A DNA stretch of 64,000 nt from Minisyncoccota bacterium (lineage in GTDB: Bacteria > Patescibacteriota > Minisyncoccia > Phycocordibacterales > UBA918): NCBI GenBank assembly GCA_041389025.1, contig JAWKSP010000003.1, positions 4,065 through 68,064 on the forward strand, in the 5' to 3' direction. The notes under the pieces are model-generated. The model worked only from the letters and a program-made list of their open reading frames with translations, had not been told where the DNA came from and made no database searches. Below are positions 5,188-43,423 of this stretch, one piece after another; the first letter of the stretch is position 1; each line of letters begins with the position of its first letter. Position numbers and translations under genes: made by a program.

Positions 5188-7929
5188 ATGTCTGAAGGAA
5201 TACCAAAACAATTCACTACTCCGGAGGAGGAGATAGCTTATTTGCGTGAACAAATAGCCAAACGCGAACAAGAGCTTTTAGCCAGAACACCTGAAGTCGA
5301 CCAATCTGATGTAGAAGCAGTTGGAAAACAAGAGATTAGAGAGTACGCTAGTTTTACTCCCAAAATGGTTCTAGAGAAAAATCATCAGCTGAAAGATACT
5401 GCTATTGCTATATCCGCTGAACAAGTCAGTGTCGCGTCTGATCCTGTAGAAGAAATCATGCAAGTTGCGACAGAGAAAGGAATTAAAAATGCTCTAACCG
5501 TTTTAGAAAAAATAGATAATGCTTATTTGGTCGATGAGGTACACCGTCGATTGGTTGAATATATTAAATCAGGAGTAGAGATGCAGGACTTAAAGGAGGG
5601 TACGCCAGCTTGGCATGTTCTTCACATGACTTTGTATGAAGTGACTTTGCCGGAGACAAAGTCAGTTAATGGACGTGAATATCAGTTAGCTGAGCTTATT
5701 GGTATGATGGAGCAGTTGTTTGCTGGCTTGCGAACAATTGGTTCAGAGCAATCACACAATCATTTTGCGATTGAAATTGCGGTGGCTGATAATAGCGACG
5801 ACATTGTTTTTTACGTGGCAATACCAAATAAGTTTGTAACTTTGTTTGAAAAGCAGGTTCTTTCCTTATTTCCGCATGCACAATTAATTCTCCAAGCTCA
5901 CGATTACAATATTTTTGTCGATAATGGTACTACTATTGTGTCTGAGGTTTCTCTTAAAAAACATCCGATTTATCCGGTGAAAACCCACGACAGTTTCGCT
6001 TCTGATCCCTTATCGGTGATTTTAAATGCTTTTTCAAAAATTGAACGAGAAGGTGGTGGAGCAGCGGTGCAAATATTGGTACGCTACCCGCAAAAAGAAT
6101 ACCGTAAAAGCTATGAAGGGGTCATAAAAAATATGCAAAAAGGTATGAAAGCCGGCGATGCCATTTCTCGTAGCTCACTTGGCGGTGAAATAATGGCCTC
6201 ACTGTCTGACTTTGTGTTTAGTAAATCAAACAAAGACGAAAACAAGGAAGTTGACTCAGATAAAATCCAGCTGTTCGGACAAAAAATAAAATCAGATATA
6301 GTGGAGACAAACATCCGTTTGGCGGTATCAGCTAGAGAAATTTCACGAGCAGAAGATATTTTAACCGAAATCGAATCCACTTTTCATCAATTTTCTTTGG
6401 TGGACGGCAACAGTTTTACCTTCAAGCGAGTAAGAGGAGGTTCGTTACGTCAGGCGGAACGACAATTTTCTTTTCGTGAATTTTCCAAGCATATTATCTT
6501 GCCGTTGTCTCTGACAGAGTTGTCTACCGTTATTCATTTACCTGCCAATGGCATCGCTTCTTCACCGCAGTTCAAGCAATCTCATGTAAATACCGCTCCG
6601 GCACCGACCGATATGCCGACCGAAGGTACTCTTCTTGGTATCAACACCCATCGCAATGTAGAGCGAAAAATCTTTATTACCGATGAAGATCGGGTACGAC
6701 ACTTCTATATTATCGGACAGACCGGTACCGGTAAGACATCATTGATGAAAAATATGATTGTGCAGGATATCGAGAGAGGCGATGGGGTGTGTATGATCGA
6801 CCCACACGGCACTGATATCGAGGATGTTTTAAGCGCGGTGCCGAAGGAACGTGAGCAGGATGTGATTTATTTTGATCCGTCACGACTAGATAAGATTGTC
6901 GCCTTAAACATGCTTGAGTATGACACGTCCAAGCCGGAACAAAAAACTTTTGTGGTCAATGAACTTTTTTCCATTTTCCAAAAGCTTTATGGTGGTAATC
7001 CTGAGTCAATGGGCCCAATGTTTGAGCAATATTTTAGAAATGCCACTTTACTAGTAATGGAGGATCCAGATAGTGGTAATACACTGATGGATATATCTCG
7101 GGTGATGGCTGATGCCAAGTACCGCAAAATGAAGTTGTCCAAGGCTACCAATCCGGTGGTGGTGCAATTTTGGAGTGAAATAGCTACCAAAGCCGGTGGT
7201 GAGGCTTCTCTGGAAAATATTGTGCCATATATTGTGTCTAAGTTTGATGTCTTTACCGCCAATGACTACATGCGACCGATTATCGGTCAGCAAAAATCCG
7301 CTTTCAATTTTAGACAAATAATGGACGAACGGAAGATTCTTTTGGTTAATTTATCCAAGGGTCGTTTAGGTGAAATAAATGCCAACCTTATTGGTATGAT
7401 TATTGTCGGAAAGATACTAATGGCGGCTTTGTCCCGGGTAGATGACCAAACTCGTGGCTTCCCACCTTTTTATTTGCATATGGATGAGTTTCAAAACGTA
7501 TCTACCAATTCTATTTCGGCGATTTTGTCTGAGGCTCGAAAATACAAACTCGGCCTTACAATCGCCCATCAATTTATCGCTCAGTTGGAACCGAGTATTA
7601 AAGACGCGGTGTTTGGAAACGTCGGTTCAATGGCTACTTTTCGAGTGGGAGCAGAGGATGCGCAGTTTTTAGAGTCACAATTTTCTCCGGTGTTTGGCGT
7701 AAATGACCTTATTAATATACCTAATTACAATGCGATAGTCAGGATATTAGCAAATGGTACGCCGACCAAGCCTTTTAATTTACGCACCATGCCTCCGGCA
7801 AAACTAGATCCAACCAGAGCAAATGCTCTCATTGACCTCAGTTATAGCCGATATGGACGATCAAGAGAGGAGGTGGAGGCGGAGATATCCGCTAGATATG
7901 CCAAAGAACCACCGGTTGGCTTAACTTGA
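5188..7929 (+). CDS. Large P-loop ATPase with a type IV secretion VirB4/VirD4 (TraC/TraG)-like C-terminal domain
   Basis: Walker A YIIGQTGTGKTSLMKNMI and Walker B-like HMDEFQNV. The C-terminal pattern RKYKLGLTIAHQFIAQL...VFGNVGSMATFRVG matches the T4SS ATPase family. There is no N-terminal TM segment and the N-terminal ~450 aa are unassigned. Confidence 0.55.
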   Translation: MSEGIPKQFTTPEEEIAYLREQIAKREQELLARTPEVDQSDVEAVGKQEIREYASFTPKMVLEKNHQLKDTAIAISAEQVSVASDPVEEIMQVATEKGIKNALTVLEKIDNAYLVDEVHRRLVEYIKSGVEMQDLKEGTPAWHVLHMTLYEVTLPETKSVNGREYQLAELIGMMEQLFAGLRTIGSEQSHNHFAIEIAVADNSDDIVFYVAIPNKFVTLFEKQVLSLFPHAQLILQAHDYNIFVDNGTTIVSEVSLKKHPIYPVKTHDSFASDPLSVILNAFSKIEREGGGAAVQILVRYPQKEYRKSYEGVIKNMQKGMKAGDAISRSSLGGEIMASLSDFVFSKSNKDENKEVDSDKIQLFGQKIKSDIVETNIRLAVSAREISRAEDILTEIESTFHQFSLVDGNSFTFKRVRGGSLRQAERQFSFREFSKHIILPLSLTELSTVIHLPANGIASSPQFKQSHVNTAPAPTDMPTEGTLLGINTHRNVERKIFITDEDRVRHFYIIGQTGTGKTSLMKNMIVQDIERGDGVCMIDPHGTDIEDVLSAVPKEREQDVIYFDPSRLDKIVALNMLEYDTSKPEQKTFVVNELFSIFQKLYGGNPESMGPMFEQYFRNATLLVMEDPDSGNTLMDISRVMADAKYRKMKLSKATNPVVVQFWSEIATKAGGEASLENIVPYIVSKFDVFTANDYMRPIIGQQKSAFNFRQIMDERKILLVNLSKGRLGEINANLIGMIIVGKILMAALSRVDDQTRGFPPFYLHMDEFQNVSTNSISAILSEARKYKLGLTIAHQFIAQLEPSIKDAVFGNVGSMATFRVGAEDAQFLESQFSPVFGVNDLINIPNYNAIVRILANGTPTKPFNLRTMPPAKLDPTRANALIDLSYSRYGRSREEVEAEISARYAKEPPVGLT

Positions 7930-7957: not shown

Positions 7958-10900
7958 ATGAGTATGGAGAAATTTGGAGATAATAAAGGAAATAGATCGG
8001 ATGAAATTGTGAATGCTGAAATTATTTCAGAAGGTAGTGGACCAATTGGTTCTGGTGAGAGAAATGTTGTAAATGAAAATAACAGTCAAGAGAATCCAGA
8101 TAAGACTCAAGAAGCCAGCTCAGAAAAAGAGTCAAGTCTAGAAATCGAAGCGGAGCAACTTGATGATTCGGAGCAAGAGTTTGCTGATGCAGAAGGCAGG
8201 TTTAAAGCAATAAAAGACACTGCTGAGAAACTAAAAAGTGCAGTACCAGAAATATATAGTCATTTAAATTCAGCCGATTCAGCTATCAGTGCTTTTAATA
8301 ATATCAGAGAATCTGATGAAAGAATTAGAAAAAATTATATTTCAAGGTATCTTGGTGTTTTAAACCGAGCTATAAAGTCAATCAATGAATTAATTGATGA
8401 GAATAAAGATAAACTAGAGACGCAAGGTGATCAAGATCAGAAAGAGGAAGAAAAGGTTGGGCGGAATAATGATAGAAAATCAGAAAATAGTAAAGAGAAA
8501 AGTTCTCATCAGAAAGGACTGGTGGAGGCTTATGTTAATAAGTTCAATAAAATTTTTACAAAAAAATTTGGTAATTTAGACACCTTGGATAACACTGACC
8601 GTGGAAATCCAAATGGTCTGCCTGAGTATTTGATTAATGCAATAAAGGCTTTTAAAGCAAAAGAGGCTGAGGTTAAAAAATGGATAGCAAACACTGATTC
8701 TACAACCCAAAATTCAATAGTTGGTGTACAAACTTTACAAAATTTTGTAGCCGAATTAAGGGATTTAAAACATGCTACTCATGAAGCGCATACAAGATAC
8801 ACTAGAGAGAAGCTGGGTCTAGATAATTCAAAAGAGAGTGAAGATCTTGAAGTAAAAAAATCAGAAATTATCTCAGGGTTTAGTTCAGTTGAGTCTAAGT
8901 TTGAAAAAATAGCAGGTAATGCTAAAAGTACAGTTTCAAATGAAGATTTTCAGAAACTTAAGCCCGATGCAAGACGTGTTATTGAAGCGGGTAGAAATGC
9001 TATAAAAGAATTTAATGAATTAGCCAAAACCGAACCGACTGAAGAAAACTTAAATCAGCTAGAAGGAAAAAAGAGAGAGTTAGAATCTGTGATTGCCAGT
9101 TTGGCAAAAAAAGTTGGTGAGATGGAAGGAGTAGAAAAAGATACCGATAAAAAAACAGAAGAAGCTAATGAAGCTGAAAATGAAAAAGGGGATAACGGAA
9201 AAGAAAATAATGAAGATGTAAAATCAAAAAGTGATGATACTCGCACTGAAAATAATGGTGTAGTGGTTGATGTAGAAGAAAAACCAAAAGAAGAAATAAG
9301 TGTTGAGAGTGAAGACGTGGTGGCTGATGAAGAGGTTGTTGAAGGTCTGGAGTTAGATGAGGGTGAAAAAAAAGAAGTTGGAACAAACGAAGAAAAAGAT
9401 AATAAAGAAATTTTTCAAGCTGAAAGAAAGGAATGGTATGAAGCTAGGAAAAAATATTATGAAGATAAAAATGCCTACAATGAAGCGGTAGAGAGTTTTT
9501 ATAAAAATAGAAACTGGTTTGGAAAGGTGGCAGATAGCGCTAAAAGTTTTTTTGGCTTAAAACCAAAATTGCCAGAAGGAATTACTAAACTAGAAAATGA
9601 ATTTAAAAAATCTAGAAGCTCGTACGCTCGTGGTTTGGATTCTGTTTTGAAGAAACGGGCTATAGAAAAAAATACAAATTACGCGGGATTTGACGAAAAG
9701 GACAGTGAAGGTAATTCTACTAAAGCTTCAGACAAGATAAAACAGTTGTTTACGCGTAAGTTTGTTTTGCGTCCAAGTAAAGAAATATTGGATTTACAAA
9801 AAACTGAGATTCTAATTGAAGGACAAGTTGAGGCTGTAGGCAGGGTAATGACTAAGTTGAAAGAAAGTAAATGGTATGTACGAGGTGGAATTATAACTGG
9901 TGCGGCAATATTAGGTACAGCTAGTGGAGGTTTGTTGGCTGGAGGTTTGGCGGCGGCAACGGCTGGTTCTCGTATGGCTATTGGAGTTGGATCTGGTGTA
10001 GCTGCTGGTTGGTTGGCTGATAAAGGAATGAGTTTTAGGGTGAATAAAGCCGAAGCAACAGCTAAGGAGCTTATGGAAGGAAGTAATTTTTCAGTAGCTG
10101 ATATTGATAATTATGAAGAGGAGGTAATGCAAGCCTTACGAAAAGCCAAAGCTGCTCAGAGCCAAAGAACCGCTGCTATAGCAACCGCTGGTTTGGCTGG
10201 TGGTTTGGTTGGTGCCTACAACGCTCCTGATTCTATTGCTGGAGTTACGGATGTGACTGAAAAGGTTTCAGGTGGTTCGGGTGGTGTGGTCGGCGATGTT
10301 GTTTCTGGTGAAGAAATTACAAAAAGTATAAAAGAAGTACTGCACAAAATTGATTTAGGGGAAGATATACCTAATGACACCGCTGGTACCGAAACCGGCA
10401 TGGAGGTGGTTGATGATGCTAAAAAAGTAGTCGAAGAAAGCGTAGAACCGTTGACTAAAGAACCTGTAGAAATAATTAATAAATTAAATGTACCAATTTA
10501 TAACTTAAATGAGGTTGGGCAGTTCTATAACCACTTACATAATATTTCTATTACCGGCGCTGAAGGTTTGGAAGTGGATCAGTTGAGTCAAGTGAAGCAG
10601 TTTATACAACTTAAAGCCAACGACATCTTGTCTGGTGAACCGCACATGACGCCGCAAAAACTCGGTGCAGAATTACAGTCGTTACTGGAGAAGAAGTTTG
10701 GTGAAGAAAGTTGGTGGCAAGAGTCACCGATTGATAAGGTGGATATTGGTAATATAACCAAAGTTGGTTATGATTCTTATGTAGACGTTGACTCTTTAAA
10801 TAAAGATACCGCTCCTATAACCATAGAAACTGAAGTGGGAGAAACTGAAAATATTAGTAGCAATATTTACGAAGTGCAAGCCGGTGATAAGCTTTGGACC

Positions 10901-12130
10901 ATCATGGAAGATCAGTATGGTGATATTTTAAATAAACTACCAGAATCTGAGCATAATGAAGTTTTAGCTAAGTTGTTTAACAACGCCAAAACCAATCCGG
11001 AAATTATAGAAGCTCTGGGCTTAAAGGAAGGGGCTAACTTAGATTTGATCTATCCGGATGAAAAAATAAATATTGGTCCACTTGGTGAAGAGTTGAAAAG
11101 AATTATTGAATCAGAAGTGGATGGTCTACCAGTAAAAGGAGTCACTGGTGCGGTCAATATAGAAGCTGACGGACCAAGTGAGAAGATAGCAATTAACTTT
11201 GCTAGAGATGGAGTAGATAATCCATTTGCCACATCTGACACACTTCCAGTGGTTGAAAAAAATACCAACGGAACTGAGTTTATTGGAACAAAGGAAGAAA
11301 TAATACAGTTTGCGGTCAAAACTGGTACTCCAACTGAACTGACTTTAAGGATGAACGAGTTTGTGCAACAAACAGCCTCAGAAATATTGGCAAAAAATCC
11401 AAATATGGATGCAACTTCTTTCAAAAATGCTGTCTGGCAAGCGTTTACTAATGAATTTAAGGCTGAGCTTAATGGTAGCAACCAAATGATTCTGGCTTTT
11501 GAACCAAAGCCGGAAGTTTTTACGTCGCAAGCTACAAACAACATACCTCCACCACCACCCGGTAGTCCTGTTGGTGGAGTGCCACCAGATTTTGCTGGAC
11601 AATCTTCTGGTTCGCAAGAAATACCTCAAGGTCATGTTGAGATGACACAGGGGGTGGTTAATAATGGAATTGATATTAATAATATTAATATGGCTACTTC
11701 GGTAGAAGATTCTAACCTAAATCAAATGAGGGCTGAAATATTTGAAAAACCAGAAAACTTTGAGTCAACCGTCCTCAAATTTGCTGAAACGCACGAAGAT
11801 AATACTAGAAGTATTCTTGATTTTGGAAAGGATAGTGTTTTTGAAGTAGCTGGTGACATGAAAATAAATGACTTGGAACAAATTGTTGATCAGGGTAAGG
11901 AAGCTACTGAATCGTATTTTAACGATAACGGAGTCGATATAAAATACGAAACATTAGTTGCTTGGTTAAATGATTATGTAGATCAAGTTCGTTATGATCC
12001 GGTCAATAATCCAAATGGTTTATTGGTAACAGAAAATACTTCTTTACGTAACTTAGTGGAAAGAGACATCGTTATTTCAGCGTGGATGGAAAAACATAAT
12101 GGATCGGTAGGTAACGTTAATGTAGCTTAG
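7958..12130 (+). CDS. Giant (1390 aa) acidic coiled-coil protein with a central Gly/Ala-rich TM hairpin region, a LysM-like segment and a Pro-rich linker
   Basis: Uninterrupted ORF. E/K-rich coiled-coil N-terminal half. Hydrophobic GGIITGAAILGTASGGLLAGGLAAATAG and AAIATAGLAGGLVGAY segments. YEVQAGDKLWTIMED...IYPDEKINIG is LysM-like. PPPPPGSPVGGVPP linker. Confidence 0.7.
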   Translation: MSMEKFGDNKGNRSDEIVNAEIISEGSGPIGSGERNVVNENNSQENPDKTQEASSEKESSLEIEAEQLDDSEQEFADAEGRFKAIKDTAEKLKSAVPEIYSHLNSADSAISAFNNIRESDERIRKNYISRYLGVLNRAIKSINELIDENKDKLETQGDQDQKEEEKVGRNNDRKSENSKEKSSHQKGLVEAYVNKFNKIFTKKFGNLDTLDNTDRGNPNGLPEYLINAIKAFKAKEAEVKKWIANTDSTTQNSIVGVQTLQNFVAELRDLKHATHEAHTRYTREKLGLDNSKESEDLEVKKSEIISGFSSVESKFEKIAGNAKSTVSNEDFQKLKPDARRVIEAGRNAIKEFNELAKTEPTEENLNQLEGKKRELESVIASLAKKVGEMEGVEKDTDKKTEEANEAENEKGDNGKENNEDVKSKSDDTRTENNGVVVDVEEKPKEEISVESEDVVADEEVVEGLELDEGEKKEVGTNEEKDNKEIFQAERKEWYEARKKYYEDKNAYNEAVESFYKNRNWFGKVADSAKSFFGLKPKLPEGITKLENEFKKSRSSYARGLDSVLKKRAIEKNTNYAGFDEKDSEGNSTKASDKIKQLFTRKFVLRPSKEILDLQKTEILIEGQVEAVGRVMTKLKESKWYVRGGIITGAAILGTASGGLLAGGLAAATAGSRMAIGVGSGVAAGWLADKGMSFRVNKAEATAKELMEGSNFSVADIDNYEEEVMQALRKAKAAQSQRTAAIATAGLAGGLVGAYNAPDSIAGVTDVTEKVSGGSGGVVGDVVSGEEITKSIKEVLHKIDLGEDIPNDTAGTETGMEVVDDAKKVVEESVEPLTKEPVEIINKLNVPIYNLNEVGQFYNHLHNISITGAEGLEVDQLSQVKQFIQLKANDILSGEPHMTPQKLGAELQSLLEKKFGEESWWQESPIDKVDIGNITKVGYDSYVDVDSLNKDTAPITIETEVGETENISSNIYEVQAGDKLWTIMEDQYGDILNKLPESEHNEVLAKLFNNAKTNPEIIEALGLKEGANLDLIYPDEKINIGPLGEELKRIIESEVDGLPVKGVTGAVNIEADGPSEKIAINFARDGVDNPFATSDTLPVVEKNTNGTEFIGTKEEIIQFAVKTGTPTELTLRMNEFVQQTASEILAKNPNMDATSFKNAVWQAFTNEFKAELNGSNQMILAFEPKPEVFTSQATNNIPPPPPGSPVGGVPPDFAGQSSGSQEIPQGHVEMTQGVVNNGIDINNINMATSVEDSNLNQMRAEIFEKPENFESTVLKFAETHEDNTRSILDFGKDSVFEVAGDMKINDLEQIVDQGKEATESYFNDNGVDIKYETLVAWLNDYVDQVRYDPVNNPNGLLVTENTSLRNLVERDIVISAWMEKHNGSVGNVNVA

Positions 12131-36573: not shown

Positions 36574-37713
36574 ATGGAAAAAGAAGATGATCTTACTTCA
36601 GATAAATATAAAACCTACAGCATAAAAGAGAGTGCTGAGGAAGAGTTGATGTCTGCGCAAAAGTCTTTGTTAAAAGTAGTTTTGTTTTTTGTTACTCTTT
36701 CTTTTATTTCTTTTGCTTTAGTTCGGGAAATTGAAGTGTTCGTACTCCCTTTTATTATAGTGATGCTACTTTTTATATTTTATCTCATAAATACTTTTTT
36801 AATTTATTGGGATAGAAGAAGAAAATTCTGGGATATAGTAGCTTCGATTCATGATTGGGATTTGGGTTTTAAGTTTGAAAATGAAGCCAATTTTCTTTTC
36901 GGTAAAGGAAAAACTTTCTCTGCCAATTACATTAACGGTAAGTTTGCTGATGCTGGATTTCATATTTTTGAATTAGTTGGAAGAAGATCTCCGTTTACAG
37001 CTTTTGTTTTTGAATTGGACAAGAAATTTCCCCATTGTTATCTAGATAGAAAAGATAATAAATACAGTAGGACAAATGAGTTGATACCACTAACAACTAT
37101 CCCACCTCAGTTTGCTAAGTTTTATGAGCTCCATGTTCCAAAGAAGTATGAGATTGAATTGTTGCAAATATTTAACATAAACACTTTAGCCTACTTGCTT
37201 GATAGTAATACGAATTATGATGTTGAGTTATATGAAAATAAATTAATTATCATACATAAACATCGTTTTGATTCGGTAGAAGAATTCGAAATTGAAATAC
37301 AAAAAGTTGAAAAACTTTATAATCAAATGAAAGGAGATTTAAAGACTTTTAGTTACTCTAAGATTGGTGACTTATCTCCTATGTTGGATGAGGTGAAAGT
37401 AGATCAATATAAGAGGTTGTATGGATTGAAAAAGGTAATATTTTCTTTTATATCTTCTATTATTTTTGATAGTAGAGTAACAAATGAAAAGTTGCTAAAA
37501 CTTACACGATACTTTTTACTAATACAAATAATAATTTTTATAATAATTACTTTGTTGTTTTTATTAGCTATTTTTATCGAACCTTCTTTTTTTGACTATA
37601 ACATTACTTTACCCTTTATAATTTTAATAGGCGTCCTTGCTTATATTTCACTTATTCTTAAGTCATGGTATGAGATAAGGACTTCCAAAAGATATAAGCA
37701 TTTGACCAAATAG
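36574..37713 (+). CDS. Hypothetical polytopic membrane protein
   Basis: 379 aa with TM segments at both ends and a soluble middle. No motif was recognised. Confidence 0.5.
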   Translation: MEKEDDLTSDKYKTYSIKESAEEELMSAQKSLLKVVLFFVTLSFISFALVREIEVFVLPFIIVMLLFIFYLINTFLIYWDRRRKFWDIVASIHDWDLGFKFENEANFLFGKGKTFSANYINGKFADAGFHIFELVGRRSPFTAFVFELDKKFPHCYLDRKDNKYSRTNELIPLTTIPPQFAKFYELHVPKKYEIELLQIFNINTLAYLLDSNTNYDVELYENKLIIIHKHRFDSVEEFEIEIQKVEKLYNQMKGDLKTFSYSKIGDLSPMLDEVKVDQYKRLYGLKKVIFSFISSIIFDSRVTNEKLLKLTRYFLLIQIIIFIIITLLFLLAIFIEPSFFDYNITLPFIILIGVLAYISLILKSWYEIRTSKRYKHLTK

Positions 37714-37765: not shown

Positions 37766-40700
37766 ATGCATAAAAAATTTGATTCAAGCGCCATTGAGAA
37801 AAAGTGGCAGGAAATTTGGGAAGAGGAGGGGATTTATAATGTTGGCGCGCGTGATACCAGTAAAGAGAAAGAATACGTGCTGATCGAGTTTCCTTATCCG
37901 TCTGGGAATCTCCATATAGGACACTGGTATACATATGCAGTGCCTGATATTTATGTGCGTTACCAAAGAATGAATGGCAAGCAAGTCTTGTTCCCGATGG
38001 GGTTTGATGCTTTTGGGTTGCCGGCGGAAAACGCGGCTATTAAGCGGGGACTGGATCCAAAAGGTTGGACTAATGACAACATTGCTTACATGAAAAACCA
38101 GCTGAAGAGCATGGGTAACGCTTTTTCTTGGGATAAAACTACGAGCTCGACCGACCCTGAATACTACAAATGGACCCAGTGGATGTTTACGCAATTTTTT
38201 GAAAACGGGATTGCTTACCGTGGTAAGGGGGTGGTTAACTGGTGTCCAGGGTGTAACACAGTGATTGCTAACGAGCAGGTGGTGGCTGGGAAAGATGGAG
38301 ACGAGTGTGAACGCTGTGGACACAAGATTGAAAAGAAAGAAATGCCACAGTGGATGCTAAAGATCACTGAGTACGCCGACAGACTGGTAGATGACTTGGA
38401 TGAAATTGATTGGCCGGAGCATATCAAAGAAGCGCAAAGGCAGTGGATTGGCAGAAGTAAAGGAGCGGAGATTGATTTTAAACTAAACCTACCGACTTAC
38501 AGCGGACAAGTGCTGTTTGCTTCCAATAATAAAGGAAAGTTGGCGCGTATGCGGAAGCTGGTCGCTGAGACTAGTTTGGATATAACTCTTATCTCATTAG
38601 AAGAAGCGGGAATTACTGATACTGAAGTTGTGGAAGACGAGAACGACTTGGCTTTAAACGCCAAGAAGAAAGCTTTGCACTTTGCTAAGCAGACTGACTT
38701 GCCGGTCTTGGCGGACGACACGGGTTTTTTTGTGGCCGGTGAAGAGCTTGATCCGGTGACGGTAAAGCGGAATGCTTTGGCTGGTATAGATGAAAAGACT
38801 CTTACGATAGAAGAGGTGGGAGAAAAGATGGTGGTGTATTATGCAGAGATTGCAAAAAAACACGGTGGAGAAGTGGAAGCAGAATGGAAGAATGCCCTTT
38901 GCTTAGTGATGGATGGACAAGTATATATGTCAGAAGGGGTACGGCCGGTGATTTTGACTGATGAAGCTGTCGGAAACTATGATCCATATCTGCCGGTGCG
39001 GGCTTTGTATAAAGCCAAAGCGACCGGTAAGCATGCTTTGACTCATAATGAAGAAGAGGAGCTAATGGAACTTCAGCCTATCACTGACGCGATTGAAAGA
39101 GTGTTTGAGCCGAAAGTAACTGTCTTTACCACTCGGCCTGACACTCTTTATGGAGCGACTTATATGGTATTGGCACCAGAACATGCTCTAGTAGAGAAAA
39201 ATAAAGATAGGATTGAAAACTGGAGTGAGGTAGAAGCTTACATAAAGCAAACTAAGCAAAAAGACGAGCAGGACAGACTAGATAACACCAAAGAAAAGAC
39301 CGGAGTGAAGCTCGAGGGGATTATGGCGACCAATCCAGCCAGTGGCGAAGAAATACCAGTCTACATTGCTGACTATGTACTCGGTGGCTACGGTACCGGA
39401 GCTATCATGGCGGTACCGGCGCATGATGAGCGAGACTTTGCTTTTTCTTACAAATATAAAATTTCTAAACCGAAAGAGGTTATAAATATTCAAAAAGAAA
39501 TCAACGAAAAAGTTTTGAATCGTGGAAATGGTGTAGGTGTTGTTCATTGGGATCCTGAGATGATACAAATAACAGATTTGAATACTGGAAAAATATTGGG
39601 ATTTAAGTATAGGTTAGGTGATGTAAGTTGTCATACTTGTTACGGTAAATTAATAAACTCCGCTGAATTTGACGGTATGAACTCCGAAGAAGCAAAATTA
39701 GCTATTACCGAAAAAGTGGGTGGACGGATGACAAATACCTACCGTTTGCGCGATTGGTCTATTGGTCGACAGCGTTATTGGGGGGTACCAATCCCGATTG
39801 TATATGACTCGAGTGGAAAAGCACATGTAGTACCAAAAGAGCATTTACCGTGGACTTTGCCTGAAGATGTGGACTTTACCCCAACTGGTGAGCCACCACT
39901 GGCTAAGAGTGAAGCTTTGAAAAAAAGAACCGAAGAAATCTTTGGTAAAGGTTGGACACCGGAAGTGGAGACTATGGATACGTTTGTGGATTCGTCTTGG
40001 TATTTCTTGCGCTACTTGGATAATAAGAACGATGACGAGCTGTCGTCTTTAGAAAGACAGAAAGAGTGGATGCCGATCGATCTATATTTTGGTGGAGCGG
40101 AGCATACCACTATGCACCTGCTGTACTCACGTTTTTGGCAGAAAGCTTTGTATGACCTAGAGTTGGTGACTGAAAAAGAACCGTACAAGAGGCGAGTGAA
40201 TCGTGGGCTTATCCTTGGTCCCGATGGTAACAAGATGAGTAAGAGTAAAGGAAATGTGATTGATCCGGATGAGCAAGTAGCTAGAGTGGGAGCTGATACG
40301 GTCAAGATGTACCTAGCTTTTATGGGGCCGTATGAGGGAGCTAATTATCCGTTCGATTTAGGGGGAATTGCTGGTATTAGGCGCTTCTTGGAGCGAGTTT
40401 ATGGACTTGATGATCATGTCAAAGACGAAGAAGATGAGAAAACTACCAAACTTCTGCATAAAACTATCAAGAAAGTAAGAGAGGATATTGAGAATTACAA
40501 GTTCAATACCGCGATTAGTGCCATGATGGTGTTTGTAAATCACACTGAAAAGTCTGGTTTGACTAAAGATTCCTACCTGGCTTTCCTTAGACTTATGGCT
40601 CCATTTGCACCGCATGTGACGGATGAGTTGTGGCGACCGGAAGGGAAAGGACAGTCAGTACATATAGATAGTTACCCGGTAGCTGACGAAAAGTTGATGG

Positions 40701-40897
40701 TGGATGATGAGGTGACTCTAGGGGTGCAGATTAACGGCAAGCTCCGCGGTCAGGTGACGATTTCTCCAACGGCTAGTGAAGAAGAAGCTAGAAAAGCGGT
40801 AGAAAGTAATGAGGATCTACAAAAACACTTGGCTGATAAAGAAATTGTTAAATTCATTTATGTGCCAAAGAGGATTGTTAACATAGTGGTGAAGTAG
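37766..40897 (+). CDS. leuS: Leucyl-tRNA synthetase carrying a ~210-aa Ham1/RdgB (ITPase)-like domain inserted just upstream of the CP1 editing domain
   Basis: HIGH (NLHIGHWYTY) and KMSKS (GNKMSKSKGN) motifs. Canonical WIGRS.G.EI.F and TVFTTRPDT flank residues ~241-449, which contain VLFASNNKGKL, LPVLADDTGF and GNYDPY matching RdgB/ITPA motifs. Confidence 0.9.
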   Translation: MHKKFDSSAIEKKWQEIWEEEGIYNVGARDTSKEKEYVLIEFPYPSGNLHIGHWYTYAVPDIYVRYQRMNGKQVLFPMGFDAFGLPAENAAIKRGLDPKGWTNDNIAYMKNQLKSMGNAFSWDKTTSSTDPEYYKWTQWMFTQFFENGIAYRGKGVVNWCPGCNTVIANEQVVAGKDGDECERCGHKIEKKEMPQWMLKITEYADRLVDDLDEIDWPEHIKEAQRQWIGRSKGAEIDFKLNLPTYSGQVLFASNNKGKLARMRKLVAETSLDITLISLEEAGITDTEVVEDENDLALNAKKKALHFAKQTDLPVLADDTGFFVAGEELDPVTVKRNALAGIDEKTLTIEEVGEKMVVYYAEIAKKHGGEVEAEWKNALCLVMDGQVYMSEGVRPVILTDEAVGNYDPYLPVRALYKAKATGKHALTHNEEEELMELQPITDAIERVFEPKVTVFTTRPDTLYGATYMVLAPEHALVEKNKDRIENWSEVEAYIKQTKQKDEQDRLDNTKEKTGVKLEGIMATNPASGEEIPVYIADYVLGGYGTGAIMAVPAHDERDFAFSYKYKISKPKEVINIQKEINEKVLNRGNGVGVVHWDPEMIQITDLNTGKILGFKYRLGDVSCHTCYGKLINSAEFDGMNSEEAKLAITEKVGGRMTNTYRLRDWSIGRQRYWGVPIPIVYDSSGKAHVVPKEHLPWTLPEDVDFTPTGEPPLAKSEALKKRTEEIFGKGWTPEVETMDTFVDSSWYFLRYLDNKNDDELSSLERQKEWMPIDLYFGGAEHTTMHLLYSRFWQKALYDLELVTEKEPYKRRVNRGLILGPDGNKMSKSKGNVIDPDEQVARVGADTVKMYLAFMGPYEGANYPFDLGGIAGIRRFLERVYGLDDHVKDEEDEKTTKLLHKTIKKVREDIENYKFNTAISAMMVFVNHTEKSGLTKDSYLAFLRLMAPFAPHVTDELWRPEGKGQSVHIDSYPVADEKLMVDDEVTLGVQINGKLRGQVTISPTASEEEARKAVESNEDLQKHLADKEIVKFIYVPKRIVNIVVK

Positions 40898-42034: not shown

Positions 42035-42077
42035 AAACAACACTCACAGACTGGTCTGTGAGTGTTGTTTTTTTGTA
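42035..42077 (+). terminator. Rho-independent terminator
   Basis: aacaacactcacagac / gtctgtgagtgttgtt 16-bp stem followed by T7. Confidence 0.75.
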
Positions 42078-42094
42078 GTACAATAACAAAACAA

Positions 42095-43423
42095 ATGTCA
42101 GATTTATTTGGATCAATATTTCACTCCATTGCCGGACCACTTTTGGTGTTTATAGGTTTTTTTGTGATGTATAAAGCAATGGGTGTTTTTGGGGTAGATT
42201 TTTCACCGATCGCTTCTATTGCTTTAGCCCTTACTCCTATTTGGTTGCCACTTACTCTCTTCTATATTACTTACGACCGTTGGATGTGGTATGTGCGACT
42301 AAAATTTACTATTGATAATGGTCGTACCACTTTAAGGCTTCATTTACCACAAGAGGTTTTAAAATCACCGGAAGCCATGGAGAGTGTCTTTACACACATT
42401 CACAATGTACAAACTCCTGATAATTTAATGCAGTCATACATAGATGGTAAACATCCGCTAATCTTTAGTTTTGAGTTGGTTTCAATCGGAGGTGAGATTC
42501 GTTTTTATATAAATGTACCAACCAAAAAAACTAAAAATGCTGTTGAGGCTCAGTTGTATGCTCAGTACCCAGGGATTGAGATTGTTGAGGAACAGTTTGA
42601 TTACACTGATGAAGTAACTTGGAATCCGGATAAGTATGAAATGATGGTTTTTCATATGGGCAAAAAAGAAAATGAAGTTTTACCAATTAAGACTTATATT
42701 GATTTTGGCTTGGACAAAATGCCTAAAGAAGAAGAAAAATTTGAGCCGATGGCAGCTATGATCGAGCAAATTTCTAAAATAAAACCATACGAAAGGGTTT
42801 GGGTACAATTTTTAGTGGTTCCACATACTAAAAAAGCTTTTAAAAACGGTTATTTGGTTTATAAAAAACCAACTTGGGAAGGGGCGGCGCAGGCAGAGGT
42901 GGAAAAAATAATGAAACGCGACAAAAAAACAACTACCGACCAAGATACCGGCGAAAAACAAACCAATCTAACTCCGCTGGAAAGAGAAAAGGTGACGGCT
43001 ATAGAAAGAAATGTTGGAAAATATGCTTACGAAACAACAATAAGATGGGTGTATATAACTGAGACTGGTAAATTCGATGGTGACATTATTGGGCCGATTA
43101 TCCGTACTTTTGCTCAGTATGACATCATGAATAGAAACGGAGTAGGGGTTCGCTGGAGAACTGATTTTAATTATAATTTTATCTCCGATCCTTCTGGCAG
43201 AAAGAAAGCTTACTGGAAAAAAGAAGAATTGATGGATTATAAATTACGTGAATATAATATACGTGATAAAAGAGATTATGCTGACAAACCAAAAGTTATG
43301 TCGGCCGAGGAATTGGCGACGATGTTTCATATTCCCGGTAGTACAGTGATAACTCCGTCAATGCCTCGTATCACTTCCACTCGCAAGGAAGCTCCGAGTA
43401 ATCTACCGGTTGGTAATTGGTAA
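42095..43423 (+). CDS. Membrane-anchored hypothetical protein
   Basis: Two N-terminal TM helices then a ~350-aa soluble domain ending ELATMFHIPGS. The start is set downstream of the terminator. Confidence 0.5.
   Translation: MSDLFGSIFHSIAGPLLVFIGFFVMYKAMGVFGVDFSPIASIALALTPIWLPLTLFYITYDRWMWYVRLKFTIDNGRTTLRLHLPQEVLKSPEAMESVFTHIHNVQTPDNLMQSYIDGKHPLIFSFELVSIGGEIRFYINVPTKKTKNAVEAQLYAQYPGIEIVEEQFDYTDEVTWNPDKYEMMVFHMGKKENEVLPIKTYIDFGLDKMPKEEEKFEPMAAMIEQISKIKPYERVWVQFLVVPHTKKAFKNGYLVYKKPTWEGAAQAEVEKIMKRDKKTTTDQDTGEKQTNLTPLEREKVTAIERNVGKYAYETTIRWVYITETGKFDGDIIGPIIRTFAQYDIMNRNGVGVRWRTDFNYNFISDPSGRKKAYWKKEELMDYKLREYNIRDKRDYADKPKVMSAEELATMFHIPGSTVITPSMPRITSTRKEAPSNLPVGNW

Follow-up and report, generated by a model that had tools for sequence, protein, structure and literature searches.

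A Ham1-like domain nested within the editing domain of a leucyl-tRNA synthetase from Patescibacteria

Aminoacyl-tRNA synthetases (aaRSs), which belong to the most intensively studied enzymes, guard the fidelity of translation with CP1- or INS-type editing domains and with free-standing trans-editing factors, and the connective peptide 1 (CP1) domain of leucyl-tRNA synthetase (LeuRS; PF13603) is itself a classic example of a catalytic domain nested in another. The RdgB/Ham1/ITPA proteins (PF01725; PDB entries 3TQU, 1K7K, 2Q16, 4BNQ and 2J4E) are free-standing and carry an SHR motif, which forms the specificity pocket (residues 176-178 in ITPA) and of which R178 is required for substrate selectivity (PMC5075207). 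The one studied precedent for a Ham1-type pyrophosphatase that is physically joined to a nucleotide-consuming enzyme is the HAM1 protein of the potyvirids CBSV (cassava brown streak virus) and UCBSV (Ugandan cassava brown streak virus), which in part remains attached covalently to the NIb RNA polymerase, a covalent link reported to raise fitness (PMC8893687). Here we describe a Ham1-like domain that is inserted into the CP1 editing domain of the LeuRS encoded on a 64-kb stretch of DNA (hereafter the window) from a Minisyncoccota bacterium of the Patescibacteria (assembly GCA_041389025.1, contig JAWKSP010000003.1), and which thus repeats the nesting of CP1 one level down.

The insert is alike to the RdgB/Ham1/ITPA proteins in predicted fold (template-modelling (TM) scores of 0.6-0.76), in length, in its phosphate loop and in the Glu/Lys/Asp residues, whereas it is nested in or linked to LeuRS, lacks the SHR motif and has an additional helix (YY..IA..HGG). 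It also differs from the potyvirid HAM1, which is part of an end-to-end polyprotein, is canonical in preferring inosine or xanthosine triphosphate (ITP/XTP) and has a polymerase as its partner, while the insert sits inside an aaRS editing domain and has a remodelled pocket. A 2026 survey of domain insertions described PF13603 as insertion-exclusive, with the domain acting as host in 0 of 213 events (PMC13114784). Contrary to that generalization, PF13603 is itself the host in the window LeuRS. Another class Ia synthetase joined to an unrelated catalytic domain is captured by the curated exception family NF040702 (ileS_w_GNAT; isoleucine--tRNA ligase, N-acetyltransferase domain-containing), in which both the synthetase and the added enzyme are different ones; the window protein scores 82.9 bits against the cutoff of 1999 for that family and is not a member. 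In the open-access literature we came across no description of a Ham1 or NUDIX domain in LeuRS, of a leuS-linked Ham1 subfamily, or of aaRS insertions in bacteria of the candidate phyla radiation (CPR). The fold and chemistry are known from RdgB/ITPA, the sequences are public, and the Pfam domain is caught by annotation pipelines.

The host gene encodes a bacterial-type LeuRS in a single uninterrupted frame of 1043 codons, which scores 882.6 bits against the equivalog cutoff of 548.4 for TIGR00396 (leuS_bact). Pfam finds tRNA-synt_1 (aa 13-227), the editing domain PF13603 and Anticodon_1 (aa 895-1006) in the protein, and the HIGH, KMSKS, TTRPDT and AHDERD motifs are all intact and are nearly invariant across an alignment of 107 related LeuRS. 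The gene and its parts are laid out as follows.

37766..40897, + strand: leuS, bacterial-type leucyl-tRNA synthetase, 1043 aa (open reading frame (ORF) and TIGR00396; 100% identical to MEZ4104542.1, our P0017)
37766..38485, + strand: N-terminal half of the Rossmann catalytic core, Zn module and first CP1 strand, aa 1-240 (tRNA-synt_1 at aa 13-227; strand 231-240 in the full-length model)
37913-37924, + strand: HIGH motif, aa 50-53 (by motif location)
38486..39112, + strand: nested Ham1/ITPase-fold domain, aa 241-449 (PF01725, hhalign, AlphaFold2, Foldseek and alignment to the stand-alone protein P0001)
39113..39805, + strand: rest of the CP1 editing domain, aa 450 to about 680 (PF13603 from aa 449)
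39128-39145, + strand: TTRPDT editing motif, aa 455-460 (by motif location)
39419-39436, + strand: AHDERD editing motif, aa 552-557 (by motif location)
39806..40897, + strand: C-terminal half of the catalytic core, anticodon-binding domain (aa 895-1006) and C-terminal domain (Pfam Anticodon_1)
40232-40246, + strand: KMSKS motif, aa 823-827 (by motif location)

The initial annotation had proposed a Ham1/RdgB-like domain of about 210 extra residues between the WIGRS...EIDF and VTVFTTRPDT strands, and this proposal is supported by Pfam, by hhalign, and by AlphaFold2 (AF2) modelling followed by Foldseek, with the number of extra residues coming to about 205 (aa 241-449). The spacing that it had taken as normal, 12-15 residues, was too short: 223 residues separate WIGRS (aa 227-231) from TTRPDT (aa 455-460) in the window LeuRS, and the corresponding figure is 18 in most of 120 related LeuRS. 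The extra residues lie between the first two CP1 strands, where close relatives have a turn of 4-5 residues. The 803 aa protein P0032, which is 74% identical, has the sequence ...EIDFALSTGEKVTVFTTRPDT at this place, so that its EIDFAL-STGE-KVTVFTTRPDT stands against EIDFKL-(205 residues)-KVTVFTTRPDT in the window protein. In the Thermus thermophilus LeuRS structure (1H3N), the flanks of the insert correspond to residues 197-235 and 240-301, which places the insertion point between residues 235 and 240 at the tip of the first CP1 beta-hairpin; the insert thus stands in for the four-residue turn between CP1 strands 1 and 2. Per Pfam, the PF13603 match starts at aa 449 and covers profile positions 21-145, with the insert falling between approximately positions 14 and 21 of the profile. 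The protein has three nesting levels, with the Ham1-like domain lying in CP1 and CP1 in the Rossmann core, and the nested domain spans as much as the entire stand-alone protein P0001 (213 aa) of the same subfamily. The full-length AF2 model (mean predicted local distance difference test score (pLDDT) 85.9, predicted TM score (pTM) 0.77) retains the same fold for the Ham1-like domain and places it between the confidently modelled CP1 strands 231-240 and 450-455.

As to the identity of the insert, PF01725 (Ham1p_like) matches the whole protein with 46.2 bits and residues 241-449 alone with 50.0 bits (E 4.3e-13), against a gathering cutoff (GA) of 22.5, with the HMMER alignment covering the N-terminal half of the profile only. 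A profile-profile comparison by hhalign between the subfamily and 28 SHR-bearing Ham1 proteins runs over the full length (insert residues 7-208) with a probability of 99.96% and an E-value of 5e-39. The AF2 model of the insert, built with 46 homologues, is of high confidence (pLDDT 95.1, pTM 0.88) and has an RdgB/ITPA fold. When this model was searched against the PDB with Foldseek, the best match was the Coxiella Ham1 structure 3TQU (E 3.6e-12, TM 0.72-0.76), and the top 32 chains were all of the Ham1 fold (29 RdgB/Ham1/ITPA/archaeal NTPase chains and three chains of the KomBC complex, TM at most 0.79). The best partners were Coxiella Ham1, E. coli RdgB, S. aureus Ham1, archaeal NTPases and human ITPA (E 3.6e-12 to 1e-7, TM 0.6-0.79), the RdgB/Ham1 structures being matched at TM 0.66-0.76. 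The Maf nucleotide pyrophosphatases, a sister family within this superfamily, were considered and rejected: Maf chains appear in the Foldseek results only from rank 33 on, with TM scores of 0.35-0.43 and E-values of 1e-5 or weaker, and there is no Maf match in Pfam. The equivalog cutoffs for RdgB/HAM1 (TIGR00042, NF011397 and relatives; 145-272) are missed both by the insert (24-43 bits) and by its stand-alone relatives (27-53 bits). Judged by these profiles and models, the insert belongs to the Ham1 family and fold without being an RdgB/ITPA equivalog.

To place individual residues, we used a 46-sequence alignment of nested, stand-alone and canonical RdgB sequences, in which the mean column identity is 42%. 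The features that it brings out are listed here.

38528..38539, + strand: phosphate-binding loop NNKGK, N255..K258, equivalent to RdgB N10/K13 (46-sequence alignment)
38633..38671, + strand: E290...N298...K302 (VVEDENDLALNAKKKA), equivalent to RdgB E41/K53 (E and K invariant and N at least 90% conserved in the 46 sequences)
38714..38719, + strand: D317-D318 within LADDTG, equivalent to RdgB D68-D69, the second Asp being invariant (alignments)
38753..38779, + strand: subfamily signature DPVTVKRNAL, aa 330-338, in place of the canonical G-x-P-G-x-x-S-A-R (invariant in alignment A3)
38981..39010, + strand: DPYLPVRALY, aa 406-415, in place of the canonical base-binding loop GFGYDP(I/V)F (MAFFT and hhalign)

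K258, E290, K302 and D318 are invariant across the 46 sequences and N255 is at least 90% conserved; together these five residues correspond to K13, E41, K53, D69 and N10 of RdgB, respectively. In the RdgB structures, E41, K53 and D69 belong to the catalytic and phosphate/Mg2+-binding residues. In PDB entry 2PYU, E. coli RdgB carries the D69A substitution, reading ADASGL against ADDSGL. K13 and N10 of RdgB have been found experimentally important (PMC8893687). Each of the five segments that the initial annotation had likened to RdgB/ITPA motifs (VLFASNNKGKL, DTEVVEDEND, LPVLADDTGF, ALCLVMDG and GNYDPYLP) is present in the translation, and it was also right that no SHR motif is evident: the equivalent helix reads PITDAI (aa 438-443), and hhalign places KN.ISHR of the canonical proteins opposite a gap. 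The subfamily has D-x-Y-(F/L)-P-x-R-x-L-Y where the canonical proteins have the GFGYDP loop, and D-P-V-x-V-K-R-N-A-L where they have G-x-P-G-x-x-S-A-R; the helix YY..IA..HGG is added, and conserved basic residues are gained (R261, K334-R335, R393 and R412). We would like to note that the register of DPYLPVRALY against GFGYDPVF differs between MAFFT and hhalign, and for this reason we make no residue-level claim about base stacking; in neither register is there an equivalent of SHR. Taken at the level of sequence, the half of the domain that bears the chemistry is conserved, and the half that recognizes the base is rebuilt.

A profile search over 1.84 billion representative sequences retrieved 18 proteins at E <1e-30 and 92 at E <1e-10, with stand-alone proteins (205-215 aa) and nested copies mixed among them. 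Local scores were computed with a seed profile of two sequences, the window insert and P0001, and at 110 bits or more with this profile all nested representatives sit in LeuRS, with the exceptions of P0147, a free fusion of a Ham1-like domain with Ser_hydrolase, and P0157, a partial protein of 280 aa. Loci were then collected from one genome per GTDB species with the single pattern [DN]P[VA]xVKRNAL, taken from a 15-sequence alignment and biased to the closer clade. This yielded 38 species-level loci in Paceibacterota, Kaiserbacteria, Uhrbacteria, Dojkabacteria, other Patescibacteria and two DPANN archaea. The insertion, which had been flagged as something to survey among LeuRS, proves recurrent: 22 of the 38 copies are nested at the same site (aa ~235-263 of LeuRS ORFs of ~1000-1560 aa), the other 16 are stand-alone, and the nested architecture is also found in many metagenomes. 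Weaker members occur at two more LeuRS sites, one following CP1 (P0173) and one within the anticodon-binding domain (P0188), and P0194 and P0226 have a NUDIX and a Ham1-like domain together at the hairpin site. The nested domain thus belongs to a Ham1 subfamily of its own, which is found in Patescibacteria and DPANN archaea.

The stand-alone copies also show an association with leuS, as 7 of the 16 genes are located immediately upstream of leuS and in the same orientation. Five of the seven belong to Uhrbacteria-like genomes and share the synteny DinB / LD-carboxypeptidase / Ham1-like / leuS, and the other two, from one Nanoarchaeota and one Pacearchaeota locus, have the order aIF-1A / Ham1-like / leuS. 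In these two DPANN loci (L009, 5569-9319, and L019, 5558-9367) the Ham1-like gene lies 22-26 nt upstream of leuS, and the LeuRS is archaeal-type (965 and 832 bits to TIGR00395). The gaps between aIF-1A, the Ham1-like gene and leuS are ~20-80 nt. The arrangement of L009 and L019 suggests one translation-related operon, and the Nanoarchaeota order is seen again on a metagenomic contig (L002). In a neighbor-joining (NJ) tree of the domain, the copies next to leuS in archaea group within a clade of LeuRS-nested bacterial copies, while those next to leuS in Uhrbacteria form a clade that has a different nested clade as its sister.

The insert also evolves at the pace of its host. Between the window and locus L003, the nonsynonymous divergence (dN) of the insert is 0.160, compared with 0.143 in the editing domain and 0.161 in the C-terminal core, with dN/dS at ~0.08 (dS being saturated), and insert and host gene have equal GC content. 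By these sequence measures the insert is not a decaying passenger.

Per these results, and relying on sequence comparison and predicted structure, we consider it on balance probable that the nested domain is an active nucleotide pyrophosphohydrolase with a specificity other than ITP, working together with LeuRS. The loss of SHR, the replacement of the GFGYDP loop and scores far under the RdgB cutoffs all argue for an altered specificity. The domain would be Mg2+-dependent and would attack the alpha-phosphate of a substrate that resembles a purine nucleotide but is not ITP/XTP, and in doing so it would remove a nucleotide that is made by LeuRS or one that interferes with it. Since all the triphosphate-binding Lys residues are kept and conserved Arg/Lys residues are gained, the substrate would seem to be one with its polyphosphate chain still in place, for instance an ATP analogue or an ApnN-type by-product arising in adenylate chemistry, with aminoacyl-AMP less likely; dinucleoside polyphosphates or ATP analogues with a polyphosphate chain would thus be the preferred candidates, and released non-cognate aminoacyl-adenylates the second choice. 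Nesting or operon linkage would keep the domain stoichiometric with LeuRS and local to it. A functional analogy is offered by the HINT (histidine-triad) hydrolases, which act on aminoacyl-adenylates made by LysRS; they are a precedent for a small nucleotide hydrolase that acts on an aaRS by-product, with an unrelated fold and chemistry and no fusion. We put forward only tentatively, and as unlikely, the specific proposal that the domain is a dedicated LeuRS partner enzyme, an aaRS quality-control or protection module common to CPR bacteria and DPANN archaea. Such a partner would destroy an adenylate-type nucleotide that LeuRS produces or that poisons it, with possible targets being non-cognate aminoacyl-AMP that is let go during pre-transfer editing, by-products of the Ap4A type, or else a natural mimic of leucyl-adenylate or an analogue of ATP coming from the host, and its association would have been re-established with bacterial-type and archaeal-type LeuRS, whether nested or by operon.

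Insertions into the LeuRS of this lineage are not confined to the hairpin. Further along CP1 the window protein has a second, hypervariable site.

39512..39715, + strand: second, hypervariable CP1 insertion site, aa 583-650, with a lineage-specific filler of ~65 aa (pLDDT <50 for aa 587-625)

GC content dips to 0.37-0.39 over 39512-39715. The possibility that this segment is a NUDIX remnant was rejected, there being no Pfam or NCBIfam signal in aa 583-650 and a low-confidence model there. The 87%-identical protein P0018 has an unrelated filler of ~78 aa at this second site, P0019 and P0031 have two unrelated NUDIX types, and P0036 has an insert of ~186 aa. At the hairpin site, P0080 and P0108 carry a different module of ~195 aa, for which precomputed Pfam lists suggest an alpha/beta-hydrolase or HAD; if this module is confirmed there, the hairpin site would be a reusable insertion point. 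A different LeuRS, P0155, contains a nucleotidyltransferase-like segment whose Pfam matches are below the curated cutoff.

The main rival to a pyrophosphohydrolase working with LeuRS, which we judge rather unlikely, is that the domain is a hitch-hiking house-cleaning enzyme, i.e., an active sanitizer of the nucleotide pool with no mechanistic connection to leucylation. It would possibly be the organism's only Ham1-type enzyme, carried along because reduced genomes put small hydrolases into large, essential, constitutively expressed proteins with permissive loops. Several of our observations fit this rival and count against a partnership with LeuRS. LeuRS of this lineage host NUDIX, HAD, alpha/beta- or serine-hydrolase and nucleotidyltransferase-like modules at at least two sites and in every combination, with two unrelated NUDIX types at one site in close relatives. 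Among LeuRS that are ~70-80% identical in their common regions, some have no insert (~800 aa), some only the Ham1-like domain, some only NUDIX (~940 aa) and some both (~1130-1155 aa), with other such relatives having alpha/beta-hydrolase or HAD modules; in a tree of the LeuRS core, the Ham1-like and NUDIX inserts are both patchy among near neighbors whose LeuRS are ~75-80% identical. Weaker Ham1-like members are nested outside LeuRS (P0169, P0184, P0181, P0179 and P0221), the hosts being topoisomerase I (which in one case also has NUDIX plus a LAGLIDADG intein), AlaRS (alongside guanylate kinase and serine hydrolase domains), a Pyr_redox_2 oxidoreductase and an aaRS of class II, and Ham1-like+HAD, NUDIX+Ham1-like and Ham1-like+Ser_hydrolase fusions occur by themselves (P0147, P0182 and P0283). 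Multi-enzyme mosaics of essential proteins appear common, and the non-LeuRS hosts together with the other modules in LeuRS fit a generic hosting of domains. The 64-kb window contains no further Ham1 gene, canonical rdgB included. Nine of the 16 stand-alone genes have no leuS within the flanks examined, the Uhrbacteria-like adjacencies amount to roughly one event given their shared synteny, the domain and LeuRS core trees are NJ trees without support values, and the conserved Lys and Arg residues count against aminoacyl-AMP as the substrate. What an unconnected sanitizer leaves unexplained is the presence of the gene upstream of leuS in two archaeal lineages, where LeuRS is archaeal-type and differs in architecture, and in Uhrbacteria, the confinement of strongly scoring nested copies to LeuRS, and the entry of the domain into LeuRS at three sites; the loss of SHR and of the base-binding loop also speaks against a plain ITP/XTP sanitizer.

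The options that the initial annotation had left side by side, namely action on misactivated adenylates, action on non-canonical NTPs, and a catalytically dead structural module, are narrowed to the extent that the dead module is disfavored, as the invariance of K258, E290, K302 and D318 and the strong purifying selection on the insert (a dN of 0.16, like that of its host) argue against it. A related reading, in which the ITPase fold performs little or no hydrolysis and serves as a sensor or regulator that binds nucleotides, or else as an appendage of CP1 with a structural role or in contact with tRNA, strikes us as improbable. The specificity half of the pocket is indeed heavily remodelled, the new basic residues R261, K334, R335, R393 and R412 could contact RNA or a regulatory polyphosphate nucleotide, and the domain is placed on CP1, a mobile LeuRS domain that handles the tRNA 3' end. 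However, the invariant residues are precisely those for Mg2+/triphosphate binding and catalysis, in nested and stand-alone copies alike, and stand-alone homologues of equal length are what would be expected of an enzyme and not of an appendage. Lastly, the insertion could be thought an assembly chimera, a frameshifted fusion, or an intein-like element removed from the mature protein, since the domain is present or absent among close relatives and one related locus has a fragmented leuS. This explanation is effectively refuted: the frame is unbroken over all 1043 codons, 22 or more species-level genomes have the same architecture, as do many metagenomes, the equal GC of insert and host gene indicates full amelioration, and AF2 models host and insert jointly, with confidence in the strands at both junctions. 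An intein was specifically rejected, as no intein or Hint family is matched in Pfam and the junctions, N241 at the start and K450 after the end, are not splice-competent; the same Pfam scan found a genuine intein in P0169, so it is able to see inteins. The pyrophosphohydrolase working with LeuRS remains the reading that we favor.

The fragmented gene just mentioned is the leuS of locus L001 (6869-10301; GCA_037975565.1, JBBCBH010006136.1), which has both a Ham1-like insert and NUDIX and is in at least six pieces in different frames, with a Sigma70_r4 gene downstream as in the window. Recoding of stop codons was rejected as an explanation for this gene, as tblastn shows frame changes between consecutive pieces and no in-frame stops. 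The fragmentation reflects either indel errors of long-read assembly or a pseudogene.

In the databases, the window protein is identical to MEZ4104542.1 from a Candidatus Paceibacterota metagenome-assembled genome, which bears only the GenBank name "non-canonical purine NTP pyrophosphatase", and the 87%-identical Nomurabacteria protein carries the name leucine--tRNA ligase. The former name looks like a mis-annotation caused by the nested domain. Genes neighboring leuS in the window encode a Sigma70_r4/HARE-HTH protein, YceG, YchF and AlaRS, and the 379-aa ORF immediately upstream of leuS (36574-37713) has a membrane protein-like appearance. This ORF and those at 7958-12130 (1390 aa) and 42062-43423 (453 aa) have no Pfam match at E <=1e-4, and a HerA/TrwB-like ATPase segment is the sole match in the ORF at 5188-7929 (913 aa). 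An Rfam scan of the 64 kb found no family at threshold (no tRNA, rRNA or riboswitch). The GC content of the window is low, GC skew is positive in all 2-kb bins and the long ORFs are almost all on the + strand; the skew and the strand of the ORFs agree with a position of the entire window on a single leading-strand replichore. The genes around leuS, and the low GC with its uniformly positive skew, fit a bacterium of the CPR/Patescibacteria.

The occurrence of a nucleotide-pyrophosphatase fold nested in LeuRS or encoded beside leuS in two domains of life leads us to propose that leucylation is coupled to nucleotide hydrolysis in some organisms. If the substrate is a by-product or an inhibitor of LeuRS, this would be a new fidelity or protection mechanism, and, if true, it would provide a function for Ham1 proteins of a subfamily now labelled as ITP/XTPase by automatic pipelines. 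Even if the domain is a hitch-hiker, the LeuRS of Patescibacteria is a hub for nested Ham1-like, two types of NUDIX, HAD and serine hydrolase domains, the CP1 editing domain is able to host an insertion of its own, and a mis-naming in GenBank is exposed.

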